Origin: a virus | Taxonomy: Duplodnaviria > Heunggongvirae > Uroviricota > Caudoviricetes | DNA: 17,179 nucleotides | Virus record (IMG/VR): IMGVR_UViG_2537562215_000014 | Strand: one strand, 5' to 3' | Shown here: positions 1-16,289 of the stretch, piece after piece | Layout: every line of letters starts with the position of its first letter | Numbering within the stretch: the stretch's first letter is position 1 | Translations under genes and position numbers: made by a program | The notes under the pieces: generated by a model | What the model was told of the DNA's origin: nothing | Databases searched by the model: none | What the model saw: only the letters and a program-made list of their open reading frames with translations

Positions 1-1224
1 GTGGCACGGACAACACGTCCTCTGACCAACACTGAAATTCTGCGGACTAAAGCTTTAGAGAAGGATCTAACACTGCATGATGGCGAGGGGCTTTTCCTGA
101 TAGTGAAAACAAACGGGAAAAAACTCTGGCGTTTCCGTTATCAACGTCCAACAACAAAACAGCGAACAATGATGGGGCTTGGTGCCTTCCCTGCCTTATC
201 GCTTGGTGATGCCCGAAGGTTAAGGGCTGAATACCTTTCCTTATTAGCCAATGGAATTGACCCGCAAATACAAGCTGAAGTTGCAGAGGAGCAGCAGAAA
301 ATCGTGCTTAACAGTATTTTTTCAGCGGTCGCCTCTAACTGGTTCTTGCTCAAAAGCAAAAGTGTTACTCCTGATTACGCAAAGGATATTTGGCGCTCAT
401 TGGAAAAAGACGTACTCCCTGCTATTGGCGAGATCCCCGTTCAGCAAATCAAAGCCCGAACACTAGTTGAAGCACTTGAACCAATCAAAGCTCGCGGAGC
501 ACTGGAAACAGTTCGTCGCCTAGTACAACGTATTAACGAAATAATGATTTATGCGATTAACACTGGTTTGATTGATACTAATCCAGCATCAGGCATTGGT
601 ATGGCTTTTGAAAAACCCAAAAAGCAAAACATGCCAACACTGCGGCCTGAAGAGTTACCTAAGCTGATGCGTTCTTTAGCTATGTCAAATCTTTCTATTC
701 CAACTCGCTGTCTAATTGAATGGCAACTCCTGACACTTGTACGCCCATCTGAAGCTGCCGGTGCTCGATGGGTAGAGATCGATCTTGAAACAAAACTATG
801 GACAATTCCCGCAGAACGGATGAAAGCCAAGCGTGAGCACATTGTTCCTTTATCACCACAAGCGTTAAATATACTCGATGTTATGAAGCCAATTAGTGGC
901 CACCGAGAATTCATTTTTCCCAGCAGATGTGACCCGAAGAAGTCAATGAACAGTCAAACGGCGAATGCTGCTTTGAAACGGATAGGTTATGGAGGTAAAC
1001 TGGTTGCCCATGGAATGCGCTCAATAGCCAGCACGGCAATGAATGAATTTGGATTCAACCCAGATGTAATTGAAGCTGCACTTGCTCATATTGATAAAAA
1101 TGAAGTTCGACGCGCGTACAACCGCTCAGTTTATCTTACTCAGCGTAAAGAATTGATGGAATGGTGGGGGGAACAATGTGTTTCGCAATTCTCATCTATT
1201 AGAAATAAGTGGCCCGTCTCCTAA
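1..1224 (+). CDS. int: P4-family tyrosine integrase (CP4-57/IntA-like); begins with GTG at window base 1, so the true start may lie upstream
   Basis: 407-aa ORF. N-terminal arm-binding pattern LHDGEGLFLIVKTNGKKLWRFRY; C-terminal catalytic region RPSEAAGARW ... HGMRSIASTAM ... RRAYNRSVYL (Arg, His-x-x-Arg, Tyr). N-terminus MARTTRPLTNTEI closely resembles my recollection of E. coli IntA. Sits at the element end, reading inward. Confidence 0.92.
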   Translation: MARTTRPLTNTEILRTKALEKDLTLHDGEGLFLIVKTNGKKLWRFRYQRPTTKQRTMMGLGAFPALSLGDARRLRAEYLSLLANGIDPQIQAEVAEEQQKIVLNSIFSAVASNWFLLKSKSVTPDYAKDIWRSLEKDVLPAIGEIPVQQIKARTLVEALEPIKARGALETVRRLVQRINEIMIYAINTGLIDTNPASGIGMAFEKPKKQNMPTLRPEELPKLMRSLAMSNLSIPTRCLIEWQLLTLVRPSEAAGARWVEIDLETKLWTIPAERMKAKREHIVPLSPQALNILDVMKPISGHREFIFPSRCDPKKSMNSQTANAALKRIGYGGKLVAHGMRSIASTAMNEFGFNPDVIEAALAHIDKNEVRRAYNRSVYLTQRKELMEWWGEQCVSQFSSIRNKWPVS

Positions 1225-1267
1225 TTTGGTAGTTTTGTTCATTTGAGATACATAGCAAGGATTTGAA

Positions 1268-2371
1268 ATGTACATTCAAGATATTCCTAAAGATTCAAAA
1301 TTTTGGGTTGTTCGATCTGGTGATGGCGGTATGTTTTATGACCACTTTGTGCACAACTCCATAGCAGCTATTGGGCACATTGACGCTATGGAATTTAGCG
1401 ATCAGACCCTCAGTAATAAAGATGAAGTGATTAAACTCGTTTATAATTACAAACAAACTTTGCTTGAAAAAAAGGAAACACTTGCATCTGCATCTAATAA
1501 AGCAGGCCAAGTTCTACGTTTCATTAATGAAATGTCAGTCGGTGATATAATTATAACTCTAGATGCAAGGAGAATAGTGGTCGGCAGGATCATATCTGGT
1601 CCTTATAAAGATATGGAAAATGTAACATTACTCAATGTTGATGGAACAACAGATGAAAAATTGCTTAAATTTACCCTTAGACGTAAAGTTGAATGGGGAA
1701 AAACGCAGTTTCGTGACAAACTTCCATTAGCCATAAATAATAGTTTCAGGGCTAATCAAACTGTTTTCTCAGCAAACGAGCACTGGAAAGAGCTTAATCA
1801 CTGGTTATCTGTTGCATTTATATCAGATAATGAAGCTTATATTTCCTCACGGATTGAGCAAACAGAAGGGATTAACAATCTTGACATTGCTCAATACTCC
1901 ATAATAATAAATAAAATTGAAGCTATTGCTCAAACAATCGCTAACAATGACAACTATCATTTCGATGATGATAAATTATTATCTCTCTTTGAAGATACAT
2001 ATAAAGAACTAAGAAAAAGTAGAACATTTACGGTAACGACACAACAGGTATTTCTTTCACCAGGAGATCTTTGGGCAAAAATATCTGGAAGCCGTAAAAA
2101 AAGCCTGTTAGTTATCTGCACATTTCTTATAATGTTCAATATTGAGCCATCTTTCGCAGATGAAAATGACAAAATATTTTTCGACAACAACTATGAAGCA
2201 ATATCTTTATTAATTAATAAAGTAAAACATGATGAAAACTTTGAGGAAGTAAAAAATGGATTAGCATTAAAAGTTCCTGCACAAAAACTAAACACAAAAA
2301 ACACCTCTACAAACCCCAATAAAAAACGCTATGATGATGATGTAGAACCAGACGACTTTGAAGGCATTTAA
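1268..2371 (+). CDS. hypothetical protein, cargo gene A (367 aa, soluble, acidic C-terminal tail); no family assignable by eye
   Basis: ATG at 1268 preceded by AAGGA (1256..1260, 7-nt spacing). Long uninterrupted ORF in visibly AT-rich DNA, where chance ORFs are rare. Starts 43 nt after the int stop. No Walker A, HNH or GS..DxD motif seen. Confidence 0.85.
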   Translation: MYIQDIPKDSKFWVVRSGDGGMFYDHFVHNSIAAIGHIDAMEFSDQTLSNKDEVIKLVYNYKQTLLEKKETLASASNKAGQVLRFINEMSVGDIIITLDARRIVVGRIISGPYKDMENVTLLNVDGTTDEKLLKFTLRRKVEWGKTQFRDKLPLAINNSFRANQTVFSANEHWKELNHWLSVAFISDNEAYISSRIEQTEGINNLDIAQYSIIINKIEAIAQTIANNDNYHFDDDKLLSLFEDTYKELRKSRTFTVTTQQVFLSPGDLWAKISGSRKKSLLVICTFLIMFNIEPSFADENDKIFFDNNYEAISLLINKVKHDENFEEVKNGLALKVPAQKLNTKNTSTNPNKKRYDDDVEPDDFEGI

Positions 2372-2375
2372 GAGG

Positions 2376-3029
2376 ATGATGAAGTTCATAAAAAAATGGT
2401 GGGATAACCATGATAAATCTAATAATTTTTTATCAGGTATCCATTACATCGTCATTTCGCTAGCTATCATAATTGGTGGCGCGTGGTCGTTGTATACCTT
2501 TGACGCATTACAAATGGCCAAAAATGCGGAAATCCAACTAAAAAAGGCTAACGAAGATTTAAAACAAATAAAAGAGCAAATTAAGGGCACTGACTCTAGC
2601 AGTATTGCTATTAATGTTATCCCGTTAAAAACACAGCTAGGAATGATTATTAATGTAACCATAAAAAATAACGGCAAACGACCATTATCCTTTGACACAT
2701 CCAAAGGAGCTTTAACTGTGTACAAAGTAAGCGCAAATGGCGATAAAGTTGAACAATCTCAATCTTTTACACCAAATCTCTATACATCTTTGAGAGATAA
2801 AAAACACTATCCAGAATCAAAAAGTAAATCATTATCAAAGACACATGTTTTAATAGGAGCAGAAAAAACCCTTAGCTATATTGTTGGATTAAATAAGCCA
2901 GGCGTTTATTATATTACATTTAGGTCAACACCAGATGATAATTTTGACACAGAAGAATTGAAAAACAAAAAACCTGTAGAATGGTTCGCTTCTTCATATG
3001 TTGAAATTACCCCACAAAAATATAAATAA
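2376..3029 (+). CDS. hypothetical bitopic membrane protein, cargo gene B (~217 aa; track ORF starts at TTG 2358, ATG 2376 or 2379 more likely)
   Basis: ATG 4 nt after the gene A stop (TAA 2369..2371), with AAGAGG at 2370..2375. Basic N-terminus MMKFIKKWWDNHDK, one hydrophobic helix LSGIHYIVISLAIIIGGAWSLYTF (about nt 2430..2498), then a charged heptad-like segment and a beta-rich C-terminal domain. AT-rich like gene A. Confidence 0.8.
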   Translation: MMKFIKKWWDNHDKSNNFLSGIHYIVISLAIIIGGAWSLYTFDALQMAKNAEIQLKKANEDLKQIKEQIKGTDSSSIAINVIPLKTQLGMIINVTIKNNGKRPLSFDTSKGALTVYKVSANGDKVEQSQSFTPNLYTSLRDKKHYPESKSKSLSKTHVLIGAEKTLSYIVGLNKPGVYYITFRSTPDDNFDTEELKNKKPVEWFASSYVEITPQKYK

Positions 3030-3335
3030 AAAAAATAAGAAGCACACAAATGTTTTTATAGCCTAAAAAACCGCCACAATATTTAACAGCCACATTAAAA
3101 CACATGCATTATGTTAATGCATTAAATGAAATTAATCCTCCATCCACTCCGTAAAAATAACACTATCATAAACACATCAATAGAGTCATCCAAAACACAA
3201 AAATAACTTTAACTCAATAATATTAAACATTCCCCTTTCTAATCACTACTCTAACTTATTGTCGTAGATGAAGCGAGCAAACTCAATTGCGCTCTCAGAC
3301 TTTGAAAAAATTGAACACATCAACATTTGCGCGCA

Positions 3336-3354
3336 GTGCTTTCCCCGCCTCGCC
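3336..3354 (-). other. cos site: P2/P4-type 19-nt cohesive end (GGCGAGGCGGGGAAAGCAC on the minus strand)
   Basis: Plus strand reads GTGCTTTCCCCGCCTCGCC, the exact reverse complement of the P2/P4 cohesive-end 19-mer as I recall it. It lies downstream of psu, as in P4, inside a GC-rich block (3330..3500). Confidence 0.65.
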
Positions 3355-3518
3355 CGCCCGCTTTGCAGGGCGGTTTTAATGCAGTTGCACTGACACGCTC
3401 AGGCCGCGCCGGGAATGGCGTGTTTTGTTGATAATGGGGCGGGAAAACGCATGCAAAGTCATGCACCTTATCGATGCATGGCTTTTTTCAGTAAAAACAA
3501 GCGGGTTTTCGGGGAATT

Positions 3519-4091
3519 TTACACAGACTGACGTGATGCCAGTTGCGCACTTTTACGCGAAAAAATCATGTTCTGCGCAGGGGTGAATTTTTCACGGCAG
3601 TCATCCACCGAAGCCGCGTCAGGCCTGAATCCGATGGTCGTTAAAATGTCGCTATCCTGTGCGGAATAATTAATTTTTTCCCCCTTCGCAAGCCAGGACA
3701 GAAGGGCTTCACGCAAGGCATCTGTGGCACGCTGTATGGCACAGTTTCGGGCAATGGCCGTCAGTTCACTGTAGCCCATCAGCTCCGGTGCCAGTGCGGC
3801 CGCCAGTACTGTGCCGTGCTGCTGCATAAAATCATTCAGCCGGTCGCGGATGCTGATGTGCTGAACGGCTTCATGCGAACGAATATAACGACCGGCGGCC
3901 TGATTCACCTGCCATTTTCTGACTTCGATAATATTGCGTAATTCGTCCAGGCGACTGACGTTTCTGCCTTCTCCTGACAGAAGCCGCAGGTATTCCTGTT
4001 CGGCCGCTGCCAGCTCATTTTTGCGTTGCAGCCATGCTGCTTTGTTATTCTGACAGGTGTCAAAGGCCTGCTGTAAGGCTGTGCTTTCCAT
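3519..4091 (-). CDS. psu: Psu, polarity suppression / capsid decoration protein (Rho antagonist)
   Basis: 190 aa, the same length as P4 Psu. N-terminus MESTALQQAFDTCQNNKAAWLQRK matches my recollection of P4 Psu. Last gene of the sid-delta-psu operon. Confidence 0.88.
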   Translation of the reverse strand: MESTALQQAFDTCQNNKAAWLQRKNELAAAEQEYLRLLSGEGRNVSRLDELRNIIEVRKWQVNQAAGRYIRSHEAVQHISIRDRLNDFMQQHGTVLAAALAPELMGYSELTAIARNCAIQRATDALREALLSWLAKGEKINYSAQDSDILTTIGFRPDAASVDDCREKFTPAQNMIFSRKSAQLASRQSV

Positions 4092-4164
4092 CGTTATCTC
4101 TTTCTCATCATGCTGAAGAATAAAAATACGGTGTGCGGCGACGGCTGGTGTTAACCGGCAGCCC

Positions 4165-4665
4165 TCATTCCAGACGCAGCGAATATGATTGTGTTTTTAA
4201 CCGTACTGGCGGCAGTTCCTGTTTTTCATGCAGGCTTTCTGCCAGTTCGTCCGGTGTGACCGGGCGGACAATGAAGCGGTTGATGGTCTGAAGCGTTTTA
4301 AACACCAGACCACAGCCCGGATCCGTGCACACATAAAAACGCTCGGTGACTTCCTGAGACAGACGCCGCGATGTTCTTGACAGTGCAAGGCCTTTACATC
4401 TCCGACAACAATATCCGGTAACAAGCATTCTTTTCGGGCGTTTCATACTGCCGGAGGCTGACGTCAGTGAATCGCGGTATCTCTGTTTGCCTGAAATGTA
4501 TTCCATTCCTGAATCTTTACTGTCAGAGAAAAAGCTTTCACTCGCTTCAAATGTCGCAGAGCAATAAATATTCCGGCACTGTGCAATCATTATCTTGGTG
4601 CCATCGTCCATGAAATGTGCGCGGCGGGTGTGAGCAACATGTCCACACGACGGGCAGTAAATCAT
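4165..4665 (-). CDS. delta: Delta, late-gene transactivator (tandem Ogr-like zinc-finger modules)
   Basis: 166 aa (P4 Delta is 166 aa). Two Ogr-type Cys motifs: CPSCGH...CRNIYCSATF and CCRRCKG...CTDPGCGLVF. Start codon overlaps the sid stop (ATGA at 4662..4665). Confidence 0.88.
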   Translation of the reverse strand: MIYCPSCGHVAHTRRAHFMDDGTKIMIAQCRNIYCSATFEASESFFSDSKDSGMEYISGKQRYRDSLTSASGSMKRPKRMLVTGYCCRRCKGLALSRTSRRLSQEVTERFYVCTDPGCGLVFKTLQTINRFIVRPVTPDELAESLHEKQELPPVRLKTQSYSLRLE

Positions 4666-5396
4666 GACAGCAGTCCTCTGGCCTTAAGCTCTGCTCCCTG
4701 CTGGTCTATTTTGTCCTGCCACACCTTGCGCTGTGCCGGTGTGCCTGCCACCTCATAATCCATGTGCGGAAGTGTTGCCGCTGACAGTCCGGTCAGCCGG
4801 AGAACCGGCTCGCCGCTGAGGCTGATTTGCATCTGTTTAATTTTCTGTTCCAGCGATGATTTCACCTGCTGCATGACAGCCTTATCGGGTGCGACGTAGC
4901 CCTGATGGCCGGTGGTGTTGGCGAGCGGATTTTCCTGTACCAGAATGCTCAGATGCATTGCCCGGACAAGCGCCTCACAGGTTTCATTCAGGGCGTGTTC
5001 CAGCTCATGCTCTGCATACAGACTCAGAAGGTGATGATGTGCCTTCCGGTAGGCGGTGGCCGTGCTGTCACACGCCCCTTTCAGGCGTTCACGTTCAAAA
5101 TTCAGCACCACGGCCAGATTGTCATATTCCTGTACCAGCTCCCGGCGTGCCACGCGCTCAATGTGGCGCTGTTTCAGCTCGTCGCTCAGGACACCACCGG
5201 CTGCACGAAAGGATGTGCGCCAGTCATCAGCGTCATTTCCGTCGGCCTGCGCCAGCGCATTTTTTTCCTGCTCTGCCCGTTCAATGGCCGTGACGGTCTC
5301 ATCCATCAGTCGGGCGTTCTCAAGGTGGGCGGCTCTGGCCTTTTCCAGTTGTGCCAGTGCGGGTTGCAGATATTCAGGGATGGTGTTGTCAGACAT
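4662..5396 (-). CDS. sid: Sid, external capsid size-determination scaffold protein
   Basis: Track ORF starts at GTG 5414. ATG at 5396 gives 244 aa (P4 Sid is 244 aa) and has GAGGAG 8 nt upstream. Alpha-helical, Ala/Glu/Leu-rich composition. First gene downstream of the late-promoter dyad. Confidence 0.85.
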   Translation of the reverse strand: MSDNTIPEYLQPALAQLEKARAAHLENARLMDETVTAIERAEQEKNALAQADGNDADDWRTSFRAAGGVLSDELKQRHIERVARRELVQEYDNLAVVLNFERERLKGACDSTATAYRKAHHHLLSLYAEHELEHALNETCEALVRAMHLSILVQENPLANTTGHQGYVAPDKAVMQQVKSSLEQKIKQMQISLSGEPVLRLTGLSAATLPHMDYEVAGTPAQRKVWQDKIDQQGAELKARGLLS

Positions 5397-5468
5397 TTTC
5401 CGGCTCCTCGTCACTTCAGGTTAAGAAAATTGTGACGTACACCGGACAACAACACGACGCATTGCAGA

Positions 5469-5486
5469 TGTGCCAGCCCTGACACA
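5469..5486 (-). promoter_or_regulatory. Psid late promoter activator site (Ogr/Delta-type TGT-N12-ACA dyad)
   Basis: TGT GCCAGCCCTGAC ACA. Centre is ~55 bp upstream of the inferred sid transcription start (~5420), matching P2/P4 late-promoter architecture. Confidence 0.6.
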
Positions 5487-5565
5487 GGAGACTCATCCTC
5501 AGACCGGCAAGCCAGGAAAAGGTCGCAGGAAAAACCGGCTTACTGTTTGTTTTTTTATATTTTAC

Positions 5566-5669
5566 TGTTCACCTCTGTTCACCATAAGAAAAAAGATAAG
5601 TAATACAGTAAGTTAAAGGGTGAATAATCGCAGTAATGACTGTTCACCGTCTGTTCACCACTGTTCACC
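5566..5669. repeat. Replication-origin-like iteron cluster: five direct TGTTCACC octamers plus one degenerate inverted copy
   Basis: TGTTCACC at 5566, 5576, 5641, 5652 and 5662; GGTGAATA at 5618. P4 alpha binds type I iterons of this sequence. Lies about 4.8 kb from the crr repeats. Confidence 0.65.
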
Positions 5670-5828
5670 CGTTGATGGGCTTTTTGTGCTGTTTATTACT
5701 GTTTGTTTTTATTAATTCGCCGGGAATGAATAAGAAAAAACGATTTGTATTTCACTATAAAAATTACGAATTGCTTTAAGTGGCTTTAAATGACTTTAAG
5801 TGGAGATGAACAAAAAATACACAAGCAT

Positions 5829-5846
5829 TGTAAGGCTGCCGGAACA
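5829..5846 (+). promoter_or_regulatory. PLL-like late leftward promoter activator site (TGT-N12-ACA dyad)
   Basis: TGT AAGGCTGCCGGA ACA. Placing the start ~55 bp downstream (~5892) puts it ~396 bp upstream of the PLE-like start (~6288), close to the ~400 bp spacing I recall for P4 PLL/PLE. Confidence 0.5.
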
Positions 5847-5948
5847 AATCCCCCCTGTTGCGTCTGCCAAAAATATTCACAAAATAAAGCGCTACCCGAA
5901 GCCGGACGGACTTATCCGGTGCTGTATGGACATTAACGAGGTAGCCCG

Positions 5949-6215
5949 ATGCAAGCTGTTTTTTCTTCCCCGTCTCCCGCCCCTGTGACGCCACTGATGC
6001 CGCTGCCGGACATCACGCAGGAGCGTTTTTTACGTCTGCCGGAAGTGATGCACCTGTGCGGCCTGTCACGCTCGACAATCTATGAACTCATCCGTAAGGG
6101 GGAATTTCCGCCGCAGGTGAGTCTTGGCGGTAAAAATGTGGCCTGGCTGCACTCTGAAGTCACCGCATGGATGGCCGGGCGCATTGCCGGACGCAAACGG
6201 GGGTATGACGCATGA
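5949..6215 (+). CDS. vis: Vis/AlpA-family helix-turn-helix regulator (excisionase-like)
   Basis: 88 aa. Motif [47 protein letters not shown] is typical of AlpA/Vis. GAGG lies 9 nt upstream of the ATG. First gene after the PLL-like site. Confidence 0.85.
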
Positions 6216-6250
6216 TGATGCCCGCTCTGCAAAAACTCCCTTTTTCTGGC

Positions 6251-6280
6251 TTGCCTTTTTCCGGCATTTGCGGATATAGT
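6251..6280 (+). promoter_or_regulatory. PLE-like sigma70 promoter (-35 TTGCCT, 18-bp spacer, -10 TATAGT)
   Basis: Hexamers at 6251..6256 and 6275..6280, immediately downstream of vis, where P4 PLE is expected. Confidence 0.5.
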
Positions 6281-6343
6281 CTTTCCGTTGCCGCAAAATC
6301 GGCAGCCGGGCGTGAGAACCCGTGTAACTCGAAGGCGACATAT

Positions 6344-6365
6344 GACGCGCCATGCGTCTTTTTTT
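6344..6365 (+). terminator. Short hairpin followed by U7 in the PLE leader (candidate attenuator / immunity terminator)
   Basis: GACGCG-CCA-TGCGTC (6-bp stem including one G-U) followed by TTTTTTT at 6359..6365, ~60 nt downstream of the predicted PLE start. Confidence 0.35.
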
Positions 6366-6604
6366 GTGTCGCAATCAACGCCACAGAGCGCCAGATTATG
6401 GTGTGGCGTGTGGTTTGCCGTGCAGGTATGATCCTGTTCGCAATCGCATGTTATGCCACTGAGTCAATGGTAGCTCAGGCGGGGCAGCCTCCGGGCTGGC
6501 CGGTATTCTTCGAGGCCGGTATTCTCACCCCCGTCTGGGCTATCGCCATCGAGCGTGAGAACTCCGGCGATAGCAGTTATTTGCTACTCGAAGGAGGCTG
6601 CCTT

Positions 6605-6802
6605 ATGGCTACAACCCTTACCCCCTCACACCCTGAATTTGTCTTTGTGTTTGCGGCTGTCCGTCGCGCAGACCGTCATCCCCGTATCTGTATGCTTCGC
6701 ACCGTCGCCGGTGATGAACGCAGTGCCCGCCGTTCCTTTGTCCGTGACTATGTGCTCTCCCTTGCTGCCCGTCTGCCGGTGGTGGAGGTGTCCCGTGCGT
6801 AA
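6605..6802 (+). CDS. small hypothetical protein of the left operon (65 aa)
   Basis: ATG at 6605 with AAGGAGG (6591..6597, 7-nt spacing). Its stop overlaps the next gene's start, suggesting translational coupling. Confidence 0.55.
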
Positions 6803-7082
6803 TAAAAAAGCCCCTCAGACCGTCTCAGCGCGTCATGACGCCTGTGAACACCTCAGCATTGAGGCTTACCATAAGCTCAACCGCGCCAGCGCCGTATCCC
6901 AGTTTGTTGGGGGTGATTTGATTCACCGTGAACTCTCCGGCCTGCATCAGCTCTACATTCCGCATATTTTCAGCTACCTGAATGAAGATATTGATTTTGT
7001 GCTGAATGAGCTGAAAGCCAAAGGCCTGTGCCGCGATTTTCTCGCCCAGCAGAAAGACCGGGGAGACAGGACGCATGTTTGA
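6795..7082 (+). CDS. small protein (~95 aa) at the position of P4 epsilon; function inferred from position only
   Basis: GTG at 6795 with GGAGGTG 4 nt upstream. The stop overlaps the start of the 151-aa ORF (7075). The track ORF is longer (starts 6555), but the SD supports the 6795 start. Confidence 0.5.
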
Positions 7083-7530
7083 TTTTCCCCAGCCCGGTGA
7101 GATTTACCGTTCTGCCGGTTTTCCCGATGTGGCCGTGGTCGGCATTCTGGAAGACGGTATTCCGTGGGAAATGCCGTACCGCTGCCCGGACATTGTCTGG
7201 AACCCGTACCGCCGTAAATTCAGTATCCTTGTGCGTATCCTCGCCGACGGGCGCACCACAGACATCCCGCTGGGGCGTTTTCTGCGGGAATTTACCTGTG
7301 ACCGTCCTGACCTGTTTAAACGCAGCCCCGTAAACCGGCATGCGGTACTGAAAGAAATGGCCGGAGACCCGGAATTACAGAAATGGCGGGAGAAATATCT
7401 GGATATTTACCCGCAGGACCCTGTTCCGGTCAGCCGGGCGGCACCGGTGGCGCGGGAATGGCGGGAAATTCCCCGCACGGAGCCTGACCCGGAAATCACC
7501 CCGGATAACAGTTACCGCAATTATCTGTAA
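7075..7530 (+). CDS. hypothetical protein (151 aa; same length and position as P4 orf151)
   Basis: ATG at 7075 with GGGAGA upstream. Codon usage matches the backbone; co-oriented in the alpha operon. Confidence 0.75.
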   Translation: MFDFPQPGEIYRSAGFPDVAVVGILEDGIPWEMPYRCPDIVWNPYRRKFSILVRILADGRTTDIPLGRFLREFTCDRPDLFKRSPVNRHAVLKEMAGDPELQKWREKYLDIYPQDPVPVSRAAPVAREWREIPRTEPDPEITPDNSYRNYL

Positions 7531-7665
7531 TTAAAAAACGACACCCGAAAAATTAAATGTGCGTATTCGCGCAGGGATACGCACGTCTTCAGGAGACGCA
7601 GATATGCCTTATCAGTTAATGCAACCGGCACGGAATGCAGTCATCTGTCACAGGGAGGAAAGCAA

Positions 7666-7986
7666 ATGAAAACACCCTTACCGCCCGTCTTACGCGCAGC
7701 CCTTTACCGTCGTGCTGTCGCCTGTGCCTGGCTGACCGTGTGCGAACGTCAGCACCGCTACCCGCATCTCACCCTTGAATCACTGGAGGCGGCCATCGCC
7801 GCTGAGCTGGAGGGCTTTTATCTGCGCCAGCACGGTGAGGAAAAAGGGCGTCAGATAGCCTGTGCCCTGCTGGAAGATTTAATGGAATCCGGCCCCCTGA
7901 AGGCCGCGCCGTCGCTGTCCTTTCTCGGGCTGGTTGTGATGGATGAACTCTGTGCCCGTCACATAAAAGCGCCGGTACTGCACTGA
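7666..7986 (+). CDS. hypothetical protein (106 aa; same length and position as P4 orf106)
   Basis: ATG at 7666 with GGGAGG 7 nt upstream. Lies immediately upstream of alpha. Confidence 0.75.
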
Positions 7987-8000
7987 AGGAGAACAACACC

Positions 8001-10334
8001 ATGAAAATGAACGTAACCGCCACCGTCAGCCATGCGCTCGGCCACTGGCCGCGTATTCTCCCGGCGCTGGGGATTCAGGTGCTGAAAAACCGTCATCAGC
8101 CCTGTCCGGTCTGTGGCGGGAGGGACCGCTTCCGTTTTGATGACAGGGAGGGGCGCGGCACCTGGTACTGCAATCAGTGTGGTGCCGGTGACGGCCTGAA
8201 ACTGGTTGAAAAGGTGTTTGGTGTTTCCCCGTCCGACGCGGCCGCAAAGGTGGCTGCCGTGACCGGCAGTCTGCCCCCGGCTGACCTGGCAGTGACGGCC
8301 GCCGCCGTTGCTGAAACAGACGCTGCCCGGAAGAACGCCGCCGCACTGGCACAAACCCTGATGGCAAAAACCCGTCCCGGAACCGGTAACGCCTACCTGA
8401 CCCGCAAGGGCTTTCCCGGCCGGGAATGCCGGATGCTGACCGGCACACACAGAGCCGGTGGCGTGAGCTGGCGCGCCGGTGACCTTGTGGTGCCACTGTA
8501 TGACGACAGCGGCGAACTGGTTAACCTTCAGTTAATCAGTGCTGACGGCCGTAAGCGCACCCTGAAAGGCGGACAGGTCAGGGGCACCTGTCACATCCTT
8601 GAAGGACAGAATCAGACCGGAAAACGTCTGTGGATAGCGGAGGGATACGCGACCGCACTTACCGTACATCACCTGACCGGTGAAACGGTGATGGTGGCGC
8701 TTTCTTCCGTGAACCTCCTTTCTCTGGCCAGCCTTGCCCGGCAGAAGCATCCGGCCTGTCAGATTGTCCTTGCCGCTGACCGTGACCTCAGCGGTGACGG
8801 CCAGAAAAAAGCCGCCGCAGCCGCAGATGCGTGTGAAGGTGTTGTTGCACTGCCGCCGGTCTTCGGTGACTGGAATGATGCCTTCACGCAGTACGGCGGG
8901 GAAGCCACCCGTAAGGCCATTTATGATGCTATCCGGCCACCGGCTGAAAGCCCGTTCGACACCATGAGCGAAGCAGAGTTTTCCGCCATGAGTACCAGCG
9001 AAAAGGCCATGCGTATCTATGAGCATTACGGCGAGGCGCTCGCGGTTGATGCCAACGGCCAGCTTCTGTCCCGTTATGAAAATGGTGTCTGGAAGGTGCT
9101 GCCGCCACAGGACTTTGCCCGGGATGTGGCCGGGCTGTTTCAGCGTCTGCGCGCGCCGTTCTCCTCCGGGAAGGTGGCCTCCGTGGTGGACACCCTGAAG
9201 CTGATTATTCCGCAGCAGGAAGCCCCCTCCCGCCGCCTGATTGGCTTTCGTAACGGCGTGCTCGACACGCAGAACGGCACGTTCCACCCGCACAGTCCGT
9301 CACACTGGATGCGTACCCTGTGCGATGTGGATTTCCCCCCGCCGGTGGAAGGGGAAACGCTGGAAACCCACGCCCCCGCGTTCTGGCGCTGGCTTGACCG
9401 TGCCGCCGGTGGCCGTGCGGAAAAACGCGACGTGATTCTGGCCGCACTGTTTATGGTGCTGGCAAACCGCTACGACTGGCAGCTCTTTCTGGAGGTGACC
9501 GGTCCCGGCGGCAGCGGCAAAAGTATCATGGCCGAAATAGCCACCCTGCTGGCCGGGGAGGATAACGCCACGTCGGCCACCATTGAGACGCTGGAATCCC
9601 CGCGTGAACGTGCCGCGTTAACTGGCTTCTCACTGATACGCCTGCCGGACCAGGAAAAATGGAGCGGCGACGGTGCCGGACTCAAGGCCATCACCGGCGG
9701 CGATGCGGTGTCCGTGGATCCGAAATACCGGGATGCGTACTCCACGCATATCCCGGCGGTGATTCTGGCCGTGAACAATAACCCGATGCGCTTCACCGAC
9801 CGCAGCGGCGGCGTGTCACGCCGGCGGGTGATTATTCACTTCCCGGAACAGATAGCCCCGCAGGAGCGCGACCCGCAGCTTAAGGACAAAATCACCCGCG
9901 AGCTGGCGGTCATCGTGCGTCACCTGATGCAGAAGTTCAGCGACCCGATGCTCGCCCGGTCACTGCTTCAGTCCCAGCAGAACTCAGACGAGGCGCTGAA
10001 CATCAAACGGGATGCCGACCCGACGTTTGATTTTATCGGCTATCTGGAAACCCTGCCGCAGACCAGCGGCATGTATATGGGGAACGCCAGTATCATCCCG
10101 CGTAATTACCGTAAATACCTCTATCACGCCTATCTGGCCTACATGGAGGCAAACGGCTACCGGAATGTACTCAGTCTGAAAATGTTCGGGCTGGGGCTGC
10201 CGGTGATGCTGAAGGAATACGGGCTGAATTACGAGAAGCGCCATACCAAACAGGGGATACAGACCAACCTGACGCTGAAAGAGGAAAGCTACGGCGACTG
10301 GCTGCCAAAATGTGACGACCCTGCAACAGCCTGA
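8001..10334 (+). CDS. alpha: Alpha: primase-helicase replication protein with origin binding (P4 alpha family)
   Basis: 777 aa, the same length as P4 alpha. N-terminal zinc motif CPVCGG...YCNQCG, TOPRIM-like EGYATAL and AADRD, Walker A GPGGSGKS (nt 9501..9524). AAGGAG RBS. Followed by TGTTCACC iterons. Confidence 0.92.
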   Translation: MKMNVTATVSHALGHWPRILPALGIQVLKNRHQPCPVCGGRDRFRFDDREGRGTWYCNQCGAGDGLKLVEKVFGVSPSDAAAKVAAVTGSLPPADLAVTAAAVAETDAARKNAAALAQTLMAKTRPGTGNAYLTRKGFPGRECRMLTGTHRAGGVSWRAGDLVVPLYDDSGELVNLQLISADGRKRTLKGGQVRGTCHILEGQNQTGKRLWIAEGYATALTVHHLTGETVMVALSSVNLLSLASLARQKHPACQIVLAADRDLSGDGQKKAAAAADACEGVVALPPVFGDWNDAFTQYGGEATRKAIYDAIRPPAESPFDTMSEAEFSAMSTSEKAMRIYEHYGEALAVDANGQLLSRYENGVWKVLPPQDFARDVAGLFQRLRAPFSSGKVASVVDTLKLIIPQQEAPSRRLIGFRNGVLDTQNGTFHPHSPSHWMRTLCDVDFPPPVEGETLETHAPAFWRWLDRAAGGRAEKRDVILAALFMVLANRYDWQLFLEVTGPGGSGKSIMAEIATLLAGEDNATSATIETLESPRERAALTGFSLIRLPDQEKWSGDGAGLKAITGGDAVSVDPKYRDAYSTHIPAVILAVNNNPMRFTDRSGGVSRRRVIIHFPEQIAPQERDPQLKDKITRELAVIVRHLMQKFSDPMLARSLLQSQQNSDEALNIKRDADPTFDFIGYLETLPQTSGMYMGNASIIPRNYRKYLYHAYLAYMEANGYRNVLSLKMFGLGLPVMLKEYGLNYEKRHTKQGIQTNLTLKEESYGDWLPKCDDPATA

Positions 10335-10341
10335 CCCACCT

Positions 10342-10365
10342 GACCGGCATCTGCCGGTCTTTTTT
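10342..10365 (+). terminator. rho-independent terminator of the alpha operon
   Basis: GACCGGC-ATCT-GCCGGTC stem-loop followed by TTTTTTT, 8 nt after the alpha stop. Confidence 0.7.
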
Positions 10366-10380
10366 TATCCCGACATCCCC

Positions 10381-10685
10381 CGAAGGTGAACAATCCACTG
10401 TTCACCCTTCACCGTATATTCACCCGTTATCACACTGAAATTAAAAGAGAAAAACGAAAGGTGAACAGTGTGAACAATCAAATCAAAAAAAACTTTTTTC
10501 TTCCTGAGTGATTTCAGTACGGGGGATTAATCACCGGTATGAGTCACACCGGCAGAATGCCGGAGGTGAAGAATCGAATGTTCACCCTTCACCCATTATT
10601 CACCACCTATCACTCTGAAATAAAAGGAGAAAAAAGAAAGGTGAACAGTGTGAACAGTTCTTTCGAAAAAAAATTTTTTTCCTGT
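10381..10685. repeat. crr-like cis replication region: two ~125-bp direct repeats (10381..10505 and 10561..10685), each with TGTTCACC/GGTGAACA iterons
   Basis: The two copies are near-identical at 180-bp periodicity. Each contains GGTGAA, TGTTCACC, TTCACC, and GGTGAACAGTGTGAACA followed by an A-run/T-run. Matches the P4 crr description (two ~120-bp repeats next to alpha). Confidence 0.7.
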
Positions 10686-10818
10686 ACGATATAGCATCAA
10701 TCCAAGTAAAAATGCGCTTTCATTTCACATTAACTTACAGCCATTGGTATACGATTAGGTATACGCACAAAAACTGAATTAAACAAAATCATTAAAAATC
10801 AAAGCAATACAATATTTA

Positions 10819-10840
10819 TTCAAACTCCGCCAGCCCACCA
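10819..10840 (+). other. candidate attR core (resembles the 3' end of ssrA/tmRNA, ending CCACCA)
   Basis: TTCAAACTCCGCCAGCCCACCA versus my recollection of the ssrA 3' end TTCAACTCCCGCCAGCTCCACCA (a similar but imperfect match by eye). No T-arm partner upstream, so it is a fragment, not a gene. Upstream are two direct GGTATACG copies (10746, 10758) that could be integrase arm sites. Confidence 0.35.
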
Positions 10841-10967
10841 ATCATGATTGGACGGTATAAGGACAACACCAATAAAAACAGGAAGTTAGCAGTCTCAGCA
10901 GGACACCGACCAGACGGTGAAGAGACATAAAAGGATACGCAAAGGAGCCGCGGCTCCTGGTGACATG

Positions 10968-10991
10968 AAAGCCCACAGATGTGGGCTTTTT
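10968..10991. terminator. hairpin terminator between the element and the autotransporter 3' end (possibly bidirectional)
   Basis: AAAGCCCAC-AGAT-GTGGGCTTT followed by TT on the plus strand; on the minus strand it lies 10 nt after the autotransporter stop (11001). Confidence 0.55.
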
Positions 10992-11000
10992 CGTTGATGG

Positions 11001-11372
11001 TCAGAACGACCAGTTCACACCAGCTACCCCGTTCCACGGGGATTCCACACCGGCACCATGGCTATACCCCACCCCAAGATGCCCGCTTAACGTACTGCTG
11101 AATGAGGCTTTAATACCTGCCTGGTATATTCCACGTCTGCCCGACAAATCATTGACGAAATTACCGTCACTATTCACTTTCACCCGGTTATCATCGACAA
11201 ATTCTTTGCGCACAGCCGCCTTCAGCCACGGCTCAACTTCCATACCGTTCCCCAGACGCATGTTGTAACTCAGCGTTGCACCCAGTTCACGATATAAACT
11301 GCGGGTATCGACTGATTTCGATTCCATGCCATTGGATAAATGATATTCAGGGTTATCAGCGATGAACCCCCG
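11001..11372 (-). pseudogene. autotransporter beta-barrel C-terminal segment, out of frame with the passenger segment (ends ...GVNWSF)
   Basis: C-terminal aromatic-x-Phe motif NWSF typical of type Va autotransporters. This frame is open back to the stop at 11373..11375; it is shifted relative to the 626-aa ORF at a C5 run (11367..11371). Confidence 0.75.
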
Positions 11373-13294
11373 TTAACGATGCATACGGCGTCAGGTTCCA
11401 GTTACCATCGGTAAATCGCATCCCGGTTTCAATGTGACCGCCCAGCCCGTTGCTGCGATAACTGCCGTTGGCGGCTCCACCGCTGCCAACCGTGGAGTCG
11501 CGAGCTTCGGTACCTGCTAATACCAATAAATTACCGCCATTTTCCAGCAACATATTGGTCGCTAAATTGCCGGAAATGGAAAAAGTGCCGTACTGGTGAG
11601 TACCGCTGATTTCAATACCGTTAGCCGTGCTCGTCTGGAGAGCGGCACCGCTGTTCTGGACGATATCTGTCGCTTTGCCATTATCGTTAACTGTCAGCGT
11701 ACCGCCTTCATTGATCTTTGTTTTTATTGCCTCTCCGTTAGCTGAAACTGTTTGTATTCCGCCGTCGTTAATCGTTGTCTCATTCGCCACCCCCTCGACG
11801 ATTTGTTCGCCGCCGGTGAGCGTCGTGCCTGTCGCAGTGGCTTTTGTTTTGACGATCTCCCGTCCGCCCGTATTGACCTGTGTTTTGTCAGAAGAGGTGT
11901 CTGACTCCATGGTTAACACGCCGCCATTTGCCAGCAGGATATTGTTCGCCGCACCCTGCTCGATGCTGAACGCGACGCCATCCGCGCGTGTTCCTGTGAC
12001 CCGCGTCGCCCTGGTGGTTGCAACCAAAGCGTCCTGGCTACTCTGCTGTATCCCCGTTGCGCTGCCTTTCTCCCGCACATCGAGTGTGCCGCCGTCATTA
12101 AGCACCGAGTTTTCAGCCAGACCGCCCTCATTAACTACCTGTGAACACCCATTAATAATGGAACCTTCCGCTGTCCCGTTTGCCATAATTTGTTGTAGGC
12201 CAGAGACGATATCGGTATTGATTGCCTTACCATAATTCTGAACGGTTTGCGTGCCACCATTGATGTGTGTTTTCTCTGTTGACCCACCATCAACAATTTG
12301 TTCACCACTTTCGATATTTGCCTCAGTGGCTAATCCATATACCGTTTGCTTGCCACCTTTGATATTTGCTTTATCAGAAGTGGCACTGGCATATATTGTT
12401 TGGGTGCCAGCACTATTGAGTACAGTGCCAACATCTTTTCCATAAACATCCATTTTGCCGTTGGCATTAATAATCGTATCAACTGCCCGGGAACCAGTGA
12501 CGACTGTTAATGAGCCAGCGTTTTCCAGCACTACATTTTTAGCTTCTGAATTCCTGATGTAGAAAGCATCACCATAACTGTTGGTTCCTTCGATAAGGGT
12601 TCCGGAAGTTGTGGAAGCAATTAATGCGCCGCCGGATTGTTGCTCAACATGCTTAGCCTCACCACCGTCCTGAACCTCCAGAACGCCACCATTATTAAGT
12701 CTGGTGGTATCTGTTTTAGCCTCCTTCTGGACAATCAGCTTACCGCCAGCATCAACGGTAGTATTTTTCGCCGAGGTTTTAGCCACTACCGTCAGTTCGC
12801 CGGTATTTTCCAGCACAACATAATTAGCCTCCCCTCCGGTAATAGTGAAGTGAGAGAGCTTGTTGTATCCTTCAATATCAGTCCCTGCGCCCGTGTTGGC
12901 AACTAAAGCACTGCCCGTCTCCTGGTTAACCCCATGTGCAATACCACCGGTATAGACAATCAGCGAGCCTCCGGCGCTAATATTGCTGCCAGTTGCCGTA
13001 CCATCTTTCTCAACAACCTGCCGGCTCCCGGAGGATATAATTGTCGTGTCAGCTTTCCCGCCGCTCTTGATATTTTGCGTTCCGCCGTTGATATTGGTAC
13101 CCGTGGCAATACCATGATTATTAATATTCTGTGTACCACCATTGATTATGGTATTGGTCGCGTTTCCGGTAACATCCATTACCCCGCCGTTATCTATTCG
13201 GGTCGCATCAGCTTTAGCATTCGTTAAAACTGACATTGTTCCTTTATCTTTAATAATCGTCTTGTTTGCCGAACCATATGCGTTTATGTCTAAA
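11356..13294 (-). pseudogene. AIDA-type autotransporter adhesin, passenger segment distal to the IS insertion
   Basis: 626-aa ORF rich in ~19-aa Gly/Thr/Asn passenger repeats (TTINGG, GGTQ, NVVLENAG). The reading frame continues seamlessly across the IS insertion point. Confidence 0.8.
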
Positions 13295-13302
13295 TGTAGT
13301 GG

Positions 13303-15523
<2,221 letters not shown>

Positions 15524-16190: not shown

Positions 16191-16289
16191 CTTTCAGGCA
16201 GCTAAGGAAAGTTGAACCAGACATTAGAATAAATATTTCAACCAATTACAGCACCAATTCAGACACCGCCAGCTCAACAAATAAATCAA

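Follow-up and report, generated by a model that had tools for sequence, protein, structure and literature searches.

A probable right attachment site (attR) of a P4-like satellite prophage at the 3' end of the Escherichia coli ssrA gene

An integrase gene opens this stretch of DNA, and about 10.8 kb further on lies a short sequence that resembles the end of ssrA, the tmRNA gene, with one base missing. The locus raises the question of where the element ends and how such an end came about. Its sequence features are those of att sites used by arm-binding tyrosine integrases of the P4/CP4-57 type at the 3' ends of tRNA and tmRNA genes. We consider it highly probable that positions 10744-10840 of the window (the whole stretch analysed, 17,179 nucleotides) are attR, the right junction of a P4-like satellite at the ssrA 3' end, arisen by the exchange proposed below. 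Junctions of this kind are ordinary and well understood, as the site type, the psaA relic, the effect of T357 and the P4 att architecture were already known; only the arm motif and the exact site anatomy of this satellite family appear to be undescribed so far.

The satellite and its right boundary

The window is E. coli chromosome. The closest complete genome was that of S1-INA-02-B (L002), with 99.8% identity across window positions 1-11486. In this relative the integrase gene is annotated 184 nt downstream of ssrA, and position 1 of the window is its GTG start, so read from that annotation; ssrA and the P' arm of attL thus lie just upstream of int, outside the window. Positions 1-10840 are a complete P4-like satellite prophage of ~11 kb (10.8 kb) with the gene order of the P4 prophage: psu, delta, sid (by position only), alpha, int, immunity RNA, cos and crr are all present in P4 order. 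The features are as follows.

1-1224, plus strand: tyrosine integrase of the CP4-57/P4 type (Pfam Arm-DNA-bind_3, Phage_int_M, Phage_integrase)
1268-3029, plus strand: two cargo ORFs in the variable int-cos/psu hotspot, no Pfam match
3336-3354, minus strand: cos, the 19-nt cohesive end common to P2 and P4 (exact match to GGCGAGGCGGGGAAAGCAC; 0.01 expected by chance)
3519-5414, minus strand: late genes psu (3519-4091), delta (4165-4665) and an ORF at the position of sid (4662-5414), from Pfam and the L002 and L001 annotations
5949-6215, plus strand: small DNA-binding protein of the AlpA/Vis family, 88 aa (Pfam Phage_AlpA, E=7e-21)
6274-6550, plus strand: P4-type immunity RNA region, C4 antisense RNA with its targets and isrK (Rfam c4-a1b1, isrK and C4 above gathering score)
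8001-10334, plus strand: alpha primase-helicase, 777 aa (Pfam Zn_Ribbon_Prim, Toprim_3, D5_N, Pox_D5)
10380-10679, plus strand: crr (cis replication region), iterons of the TGTTCACC type in two direct repeats of ~120 bp (left limit approximate)
10744-10767, plus strand: P arm, two adjacent 12-bp arm-type sites, TTGGTATACGAT and TAGGTATACGCA (from position and recurrence)
10768-10818, plus strand: A+T-rich spacer from arm sites to core (read directly; equivalent stretch in P4 and CP4-57)
10819-10826, plus strand: element-side (P) part of the core, TTCAAACT, ssrA-like, not identical
10827-10840, plus strand: block common with the ssrA 3' end, CCGCCAGC-CCACCA without T357 (pattern unique in the window)
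10838-10851, no strand: palindrome CCAATCATGATTGG, composed of the terminal CCA and the 11 nt of host flank that follow it (from empty-site genomes)
10841-11327, no strand: host flank (B'), with a hairpin and T-run at ~10960-10985 and then the disrupted ypjA 3' end on the minus strand (L001, L002 and K-12 annotations)

The integrase, with an arm-DNA-binding, a central core-binding and a catalytic domain by Pfam, shares 62% identity with K-12 IntA and 36% with P4 Int, which bears out the original prediction of a CP4-57-type enzyme. The cos query GGCGAGGCGGGGAAAGCAC is what we take to be the P2/P4 cos sequence. Among the late genes, Psu (E=1e-88) and Ogr_Delta (E=7e-22) were recognized by Pfam, and the sid assignment of the 4662-5414 ORF, which gave no family match, follows from its position alone. 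The first cargo ORF matches the PADLOC candidate defence family PDC-S02 (E=2.7e-18), and the int-cos/psu segment, a known defence hotspot of P4-like satellites (PMC9122126), varies between otherwise near-identical relatives. By analogy with AlpA, which drives excision of CP4-57 and CP4So (PMC5148205, PMC10107115), the AlpA/Vis-like protein is likely to be the excision directionality factor. Downstream of alpha, the terminator scan found a terminator-like hairpin at 10342-10359, and P4 has an annotated terminator at the equivalent place. Over positions 10500-10679, the identity to the crr annotated in phage P4 is 97.8%, and the first crr repeat was read directly in the sequence. The similarity to P4 ends just past crr, which indicates that the att/int module was exchanged. 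In the host flank, a Pfam Autotransporter match at 11001-11327 corresponds to the truncated autotransporter gene ypjA; the hairpin at ~10960-10985 was read by eye and is absent from the terminator-scan output.

Two other identities were considered for this DNA. The element is not prophage CP4-57, as it lacks the gene content of that island (yfjH-ypjF, rnlAB, abpAB) and carries P4-like genes; K-12 aligns with the window only from 10818 rightwards. A functional ssrA in the window was rejected as well, the tmRNA fragment being only 14-22 nt long with no full tRNA-like domain or tag frame. Neither tRNA nor tmRNA genes were detected in the window by ARAGORN, and there was no Rfam tmRNA match at gathering score.

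The original prediction had placed the element boundary at ~10840 and proposed a comparison with empty sites. The last 87 nt of ssrA were therefore joined to window positions 10841-10939, and this synthetic attB was searched in 5426 complete E. coli genomes. Both halves were contiguous in 2571 of them, which are empty sites; the best 25 matches, IAI1 among them, were 100% identical, single and annotated as ssrA. As intact ssrA is joined directly to the sequence from 10841 onwards in these 2571 genomes, the element ends at 10840 and host DNA begins at 10841, within the ambiguity of the common bases. The left junction is known from the relatives L002 and L001, the window's own being outside it. 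There, attL consists of GGGTTCAACTCCCGCCAGCTCCACCA followed by cttgctcttcc, a terminator hairpin, four GGTATAC sites and int; the ssrA end can also be written as CCCGCCAGCTCCACCA followed by cttgctcttcc. The last bases of ssrA in L002, 184 nt ahead of position 1 of the window, are CCGCCAGCTCCACCA, which forms a direct repeat with 10827-10840. A repeat of the core at attL, as anticipated, was thus found, but it is not identical, the copy in the window being without T357. The exact right boundary and the site anatomy are now fixed for these common ssrA-targeting P4-like satellites, whose att sites are left unannotated in RefSeq records.

Arm sites, core and a displaced ssrA end

Two direct repeats upstream of the core had been suggested as integrase arm sites. 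They are copies of GGTATACG at 10746-10753 and 10758-10765, the only two in the window on both strands (0.23 expected per strand), and form the centres of the adjacent 12-mers TTGGTATACGAT and TAGGTATACGCA. Counted from the CCA end, the arm motifs of this and of related sites lie as follows.

Window attR: P arm -94 and -82; P' arm and inverted copies outside the window
L002 attL: P' arm +115 and +127; inverted copies +142 and +156
L005 attP (with T): P arm -95 and -83; P' arm +115 and +127; inverted copies +142 and +156
Phage P4 attP: P arm -94 and -82; P' arm +115 and +127; inverted copy +155
K-12 CP4-57 attR: P arm -94 and -82

The repeats in P4, of motif GGGGGCA, are annotated "attP arm sequence repeat" in X51522, and the positions in the window match them to the nucleotide, with the window's motif recurring in the other arm. 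The CP4-57 attR of K-12 has a motif of its own, TAGGACCA/TGGGACCA. Among 61 junctions in viral contigs, both arm copies always co-varied (GGTATAC, GGTACAC, GGACCA, GGCACC, GGCCCA). Because of position, phasing, occurrence in both arms, concerted change and the arm-binding domain of the integrase, the reading as arm sites, which upholds the suggestion, may be called secure short of a binding assay. In P4-type sites, the A+T-rich spacer is the expected place of action of DNA-bending proteins, among them IHF, and Kirby et al. are said to have described in 1994 an IHF dependence of CP4-57 excision.

The sequence TTCAAACTCCGCCAGCCCACCA is present at 10819-10840, as an exact check of the window confirmed, and the junction reads TTATTCAAACTCCGCCAGC-CCACCA followed by atcatg. 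A single match to the pattern CCGCCAGC[N]CCACCA is present in the window (10827-10840), and 0/200 shuffles contain one. Compared with the attL repeat, attR matches at 14/15 positions with a 1-nt deletion, and CCGCCAGC[T]CCACCA is the only part common with ssrA: to the left of CCGCCAGC, the window has ATTCAAACT whereas ssrA has GGTTCAACTC. The origin of this left part was visible in a contiguous attP found by the pattern scan of viral contigs, in the IMG/VR contig L005, which could derive from a circle, a virion or a tandem pair. It consists of the P arm, ATTCAGACTCCGCCAGCTCCACCA, cttgctcttcc, a terminator, the P' arm and int, and T is present. A reconstructed attP searched in phage records had returned P4 crr and ssrA-like pieces only, with no contiguous attP among those records. 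The attP and ssrA have 15 bp in common, CCGCCAGCTCCACCA. The ATTCARACT to the left of this block is found, with an A/G variant, both in the L005 attP and in the CP4-57 attR of K-12, and on comparison of these sequences it reads as element sequence that merely resembles ssrA; TTCAAACT (10819-10826) is presumed to be the left core-type site of the integrase.

The missing base is T357, counted back from A363. T357 pairs with G3 in the acceptor-stem G.U pair that is the identity element for alanyl-tRNA synthetase (PMC10107115), and the function of tmRNA depends on this one base. K-12 has an identical T-less core and flank at the right end of CP4-57, where the annotation gives a pseudogene, psaA. 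Judged by this identity, positions 10827-10840 represent a displaced, non-functional copy of the ssrA end, equal to psaA. The likeness of 10819-10840 to the 3' end of tmRNA, which had drawn attention to the site, therefore holds for the last 14 nt, but the match is imperfect, lacks T357 and has a left part from the element side. At up to 3 mismatches to the K-12 form, the pattern gave no second tmRNA-like core in the window. A more diverged relic of a tmRNA end was seen at 16252-16279 by reading the aligned position. A scan of genome contigs with ACTCCGCCAGC[N]CCACCA was too unspecific, with 17-18 specified bases: among the 120 loci listed, nearly all were chance matches in unrelated phyla and Cedecea neteri alone was relevant.

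The original prediction had further pointed to a palindrome overlapping the CCA end. The perfect palindrome CCAATCATGATTGG lies exactly at the coordinates given for it, 10838-10851, but it is host DNA, made of the CCA end and the native flank, and no feature of the element: it follows intact ssrA in the empty-site genomes, and several other elements too. The window holds 6 perfect palindromes of at least 14 bp (~1 expected), so that CCAATCATGATTGG is unexceptional on its own. A role as a protein-binding operator, or as a trailer hairpin of the pre-tmRNA with an effect on 3' processing, would suit a perfect 14-bp palindrome abutting the CCA end, conserved in the inspected empty-site genomes and found after several different elements. 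Besides the number of palindromes of such size, the occupied sites speak against it. There, what comes after the working ssrA is sequence from the element (cttgctc..., aaattctc...), unrelated and lacking the palindrome, showing that the palindrome is not needed for tmRNA function, and the element sequence brings its own terminator hairpin. We regard such a role as very remote. The palindrome was also considered as a core-type site of the integrase, together with a TGAT recurring in right flanks, and this was set aside as unconvincing, TGAT being present in only about half of the flank types.

These parts can be assembled into a model of integration. The attP order is two 12-bp GGTATAC arm sites, ~50 nt of A+T-rich spacer, ATTCARACT, the 15-bp CCGCCAGCTCCACCA, a terminator for ssrA of the element's own, four arm sites and int. 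By the lambda and P4 paradigms, the N-terminal domain of the integrase would bind the arm sites, its core-binding and catalytic domains would bring the 15-bp block together with its counterpart in ssrA, and bending proteins in the A+T-rich spacers would assist Int in bridging arm and core sites. Strand exchange would take place within CCGCCAGC (10827-10834), at predicted cleavage positions. The T357-CCACCA and terminator of the element would then complete a working ssrA at the left junction, and the old ssrA 3' end of the chromosome would be displaced to attR as a dead copy. Excision by Int would be directed by the AlpA/Vis-like protein (5949-6215). In the case of the window, the satellite most likely occupies a flank that was already without T357, an earlier occupant having been replaced.

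Excision of CP4-57 and CP4So is accompanied by loss of T/U357 and abolishes trans-translation (PMC10107115, PMC5148205). In the laboratory strain DTU-1, a 362-nt ssrA is fused to the same flank as in the window. The exchange is placed to the left of T357, inside CCGCCAGC, because these excisants lose T/U357 and the ssrA of DTU-1 is 362 nt long. By analogy, excision of the satellite should leave an ssrA without T357 and an inactive tmRNA; once the satellite is lost, trans-translation would be expected to fail and ribosome rescue to shift to ArfA, which would be of relevance for curing or mobilising such satellites, or for using them as carriers of defence genes. Our first idea, a crossover in CCACCA, suggested by intact empty sites and a T-less attR, was dropped as the lead view in the light of the excision literature, the T-bearing attP, DTU-1 and the attR of a P2-like prophage described below.

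Recurrence of the T357 deletion

The state of T357 was then compared across the E. coli genomes.

Empty site, both halves contiguous: 2571/5426 genomes
attR with element-type left side, without T: 457 genomes, 42 of which match the window 34-mer exactly
Same junction with T: 54 genomes, 48 with the window-type left side
True ssrA left part, no T, same flank: 87 genomes

The other 415 T-less junctions are one position off the window 34-mer, presumably in the K-12 ATTCAG form. In 48 genomes with the same type of satellite attR keeps T, as in MCJCHV-1 with the same satellite, so that the deletion is no property of the element type. Among the 12 listed of the 87 genomes with a true ssrA left part, 11 are not annotated as ssrA and the twelfth is DTU-1. 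KL53, one of these 11, was inspected and has the attR of a P2-like prophage, with the deletion. Strain Sx181-0-1 (NZ_CP078137.1) has the same T-less core, flank haplotype and truncated ypjA after a CP4-57-like island. The simplest reading of these cases is that the deletion belongs to the chromosomal flank, on which occupants were swapped, and that satellites entering a normal empty site kept a perfect repeat.

Other junctions fit this reading less well. If the exchange falls to the left of T357, junctions inside tandem arrays should carry T, yet most are without it: 11 E. coli genomes have internal array junctions without T vs 2 with T, and all 16 viral-contig junctions that stand before a CP4-57-type P' arm are T-less (16/16). 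The array of Z1323PEC0014, for example, consists of a 363-nt ssrA, a satellite, a T-less junction and the decayed integrase of an EspC island. The base is missing from 55/61 viral-contig junctions, beside many unrelated right flanks; by flank, T is present in 5/8 of those starting with CTT vs 1/53 of those starting with A. Moreover, two flank haplotypes, apart at ~7/100 positions, carry a near-identical satellite (99.8%), one in the window and one in L002. As most internal array junctions are T-less, the best model needs the same 1-nt deletion to have arisen several times and then to have been kept with each right flank. Three possibilities could account for a recurrent deletion: a repeated origin that stays with the flank, a place on the P side of some attP, or a T357 that lies inside the exchanged overlap.

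More generally, one may speculate, at rather low odds, that the loss of T357 is no random decay of a dead copy but is brought about or handed on at junctions by integrases of this family. The base would then form part of the segment that is exchanged, border on it, or be supplied by the P side of attP, and each element would carry a built-in switch. Excision would leave a working or a dead tmRNA gene depending on the event, and a T-less chromosome would regain function only via a new element. This would explain why one and the same 1-nt deletion is found beside many unrelated flanks and also at junctions inside tandem arrays. The point of wider interest is what makes this deletion recur at such a number of junctions.

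Several of the observations can be accommodated if the T-less copy is carried on the P side of attP and the exchange falls further right, in CCACCA(A), so that integration gives a T-less attR and excision restores an intact ssrA. The internal junctions of arrays, which join a satellite P side to the P' arm of another island, would be T-less without any mutation; the 55 T-less viral-contig junctions beside unrelated flanks and the near-identical satellite on two haplotypes would follow too, and attL and attR of K-12 do have CCACCAA (7 bp) in common. Such an exchange is hard to reconcile with the published CP4-57 and CP4So excisants, which lost T/U357 and were tmRNA-defective, and with the 362-nt ssrA of DTU-1 joined to the flank. 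In addition, the sole contiguous attP found (L005) carries T, the P2-like prophage attR combines a long true ssrA left part with the deletion and so needs a deletion on the chromosomal side, and T is enriched with one class of right flank (CTT). We hold this account to be improbable. Alternatively, T357 could lie inside the exchanged overlap, where heteroduplex products would segregate to both states and selection would keep T only in functional ssrA. No other single model accommodates every combination seen without invoking repeated mutation; the combinations are an ssrA left part with no T and host flank, an element P side with no T and a foreign P' arm, and both states on the same P side and flank. 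Some tyrosine recombinases, such as those of Tn916 and CTnDOT, do tolerate heterology in the overlap. A 1-nt length difference in the overlap, however, normally blocks lambda-type integrases, and the AlpA-driven excision of CP4-57 is said to have been described as efficient by Wang et al. in 2009. Without a bias, the T-less state would also be diluted in each cycle of excision and integration, yet it is the majority. An exchanged overlap of this kind thus seems quite improbable as well.

It could also be argued that the ssrA-like core is a fossil left by a previous occupant, for instance a CP4-57-like island, and was never used by the satellite, which would have come in by another route. The core and flank are indeed identical to those of K-12 CP4-57 and, on the same flank haplotype, to those of a CP4-57-like island. 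The arm sites of the satellite, however, lie at the exact P4 distance from the core, the L005 attP runs from this same P side through the core into the P' arm, and the satellite sequence is unbroken up to the core in ~90 E. coli genomes. It is hardly conceivable that the core is such a fossil. We therefore favor a true attR, formed by exchange to the left of T357.

Comparison with known integrative elements

The closest counterpart is the attR of CP4-57 in E. coli K-12 (psaA, b4645), which occupies the same chromosomal place with the same core and flank, ACTCCGCCAGC-CCACCAATCATGATTGG, and likewise lacks T357. CP4-57 also has arm-type repeats at -94/-82 and an AlpA-family gene, and its integrase is 62% identical. 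It is, however, a 22-kb island, whereas the P4-like satellite described here measures 10.8 kb and carries psu, delta, alpha, cos and crr. The arm motif is GGACCA/GGCCCA in CP4-57 and GGTATAC in the satellite, the P-side cores are one base apart (ATTCAG in CP4-57, ATTCAA in the satellite), and the P' sites lie at ~+137/+149 in CP4-57 vs +115/+127 in the satellite family.

In architecture, the site follows the attP of phage P4 (X51522), with the same order of alpha, crr, two tandem 12-bp arm repeats, an A+T-rich spacer and a core ending in CCA; past the core, the order is again the same, with ~112 nt, two tandem arm repeats, inverted repeat(s) and int. Motif positions are identical to the nucleotide, crr is 97.8% identical and alpha has 777 aa in both. 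The target differs, P4 using tRNA-Leu (leuX) through the 20-bp core GAGTCCGGCCTTCGGCACCA and the satellite using ssrA. The arm motif of P4 is GGGGGCA and its integrase is only 36% identical; the att/int module was swapped right after crr.

Finally, CP4So of Shewanella oneidensis, VPI and Stit11X (Table 1, PMC10107115) have a P4-type integrase beside ssrA, as here. In this group, the attR copy is CGCCAGC-CCACCA, with the same U357 missing, and AlpA-dependent excision inactivates tmRNA. These are large mosaic islands of other hosts and with other cargo, for which excision has been demonstrated, whereas the satellite described here is known from sequence alone.

Exchanged att/int module and variable satellite cargo

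A sharp mosaic joint was observed at window position ~10680. The cis replication region (crr) to its left is 97.8% identical to that of P4, whereas the arm sites, core and integrase gene (int) to its right belong to a different att/int module from that of P4. The adjoining of a P4-like crr and a foreign att/int module shows that integration specificity was swapped as a cassette. The cargo between int and the cohesive-end sequence (cos), window 1268-3029, is also unlike that of the otherwise near-identical satellites in L001, MCJCHV-1 and NZ_CP148268.1. Of its two open reading frames, the first gave a hit to PDC-S02, a candidate defence family in PADLOC (E=2.7e-18), and a weak one to a model for type II restriction enzymes; the same searches found no match for the second.

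Decay and history of the right flank

An IS3-family insertion sequence lies within ypjA at window 13297-14552, and contains the following features:

13549-14049, rve-domain fragment
14169-14516, transposase orfA
14362-14484, match to the Rfam family "isrC"

In addition, ~1.3 kb of ypjA repeats present in K-12 and in the closest relative, S1-INA-02-B, are absent from the window (joint 11486/11474). With the insertion and the loss of repeats, ypjA is broken here. Further right, between the pinH fragment and ypjC, we found another relic of the ssrA 3' end (window 16252-16279), attR-like but in a more advanced state of decay. It reads caccaATTCAGACACCGCCAGCTCAACA where K-12 and S1-INA-02-B have ATTCAGTCACTGCCAGCCCACCA. 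With this relic beyond pinH, the ypjA-pinH block looks like what is left of an older, tandemly placed island, and the DNA that we call the "host flank" of the attR studied here may itself once have belonged to an element.

T357 at other ssrA junctions

Tandem arrays, in which a satellite is followed by another island or satellite, were observed at ssrA:

L189 15001-15036 (NZ_CP148268.1), array junction
L129, L183, L184 and other IMG/VR loci, further array loci

Most of the P-core-P' junctions inside these arrays are missing T357, the base required by a working tmRNA, an absence that is not predicted by the published crossover position left of T357. The MCJCHV-1 satellite keeps the T at attR. 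At its attL (L006 2238-2260), the working ssrA has AATCATGATCCGG immediately after its CCA. This sequence nearly duplicates the host flank ATCATGATTGG and stands in place of the cttgctctt found in S1-INA-02-B and L001.

A CP4-57-like junction, either an attP or an array junction, was seen in Cedecea neteri NBRC 105707 (L060 2900-3170). It carries GGCCCA arm repeats, a core without T357 and a CP4-57-type P' sequence with its arm repeats in part deleted, directly followed by a gene for a 413-aa integrase.

KL53 (L007 3980-4037) carries a P2-like prophage at ssrA, with the integrase at its right end. Its ssrA-identical segment is much longer. Its attR copy likewise lacks T357, and therefore the T357 deletion in E. 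coli is not tied to P4-type integrases.
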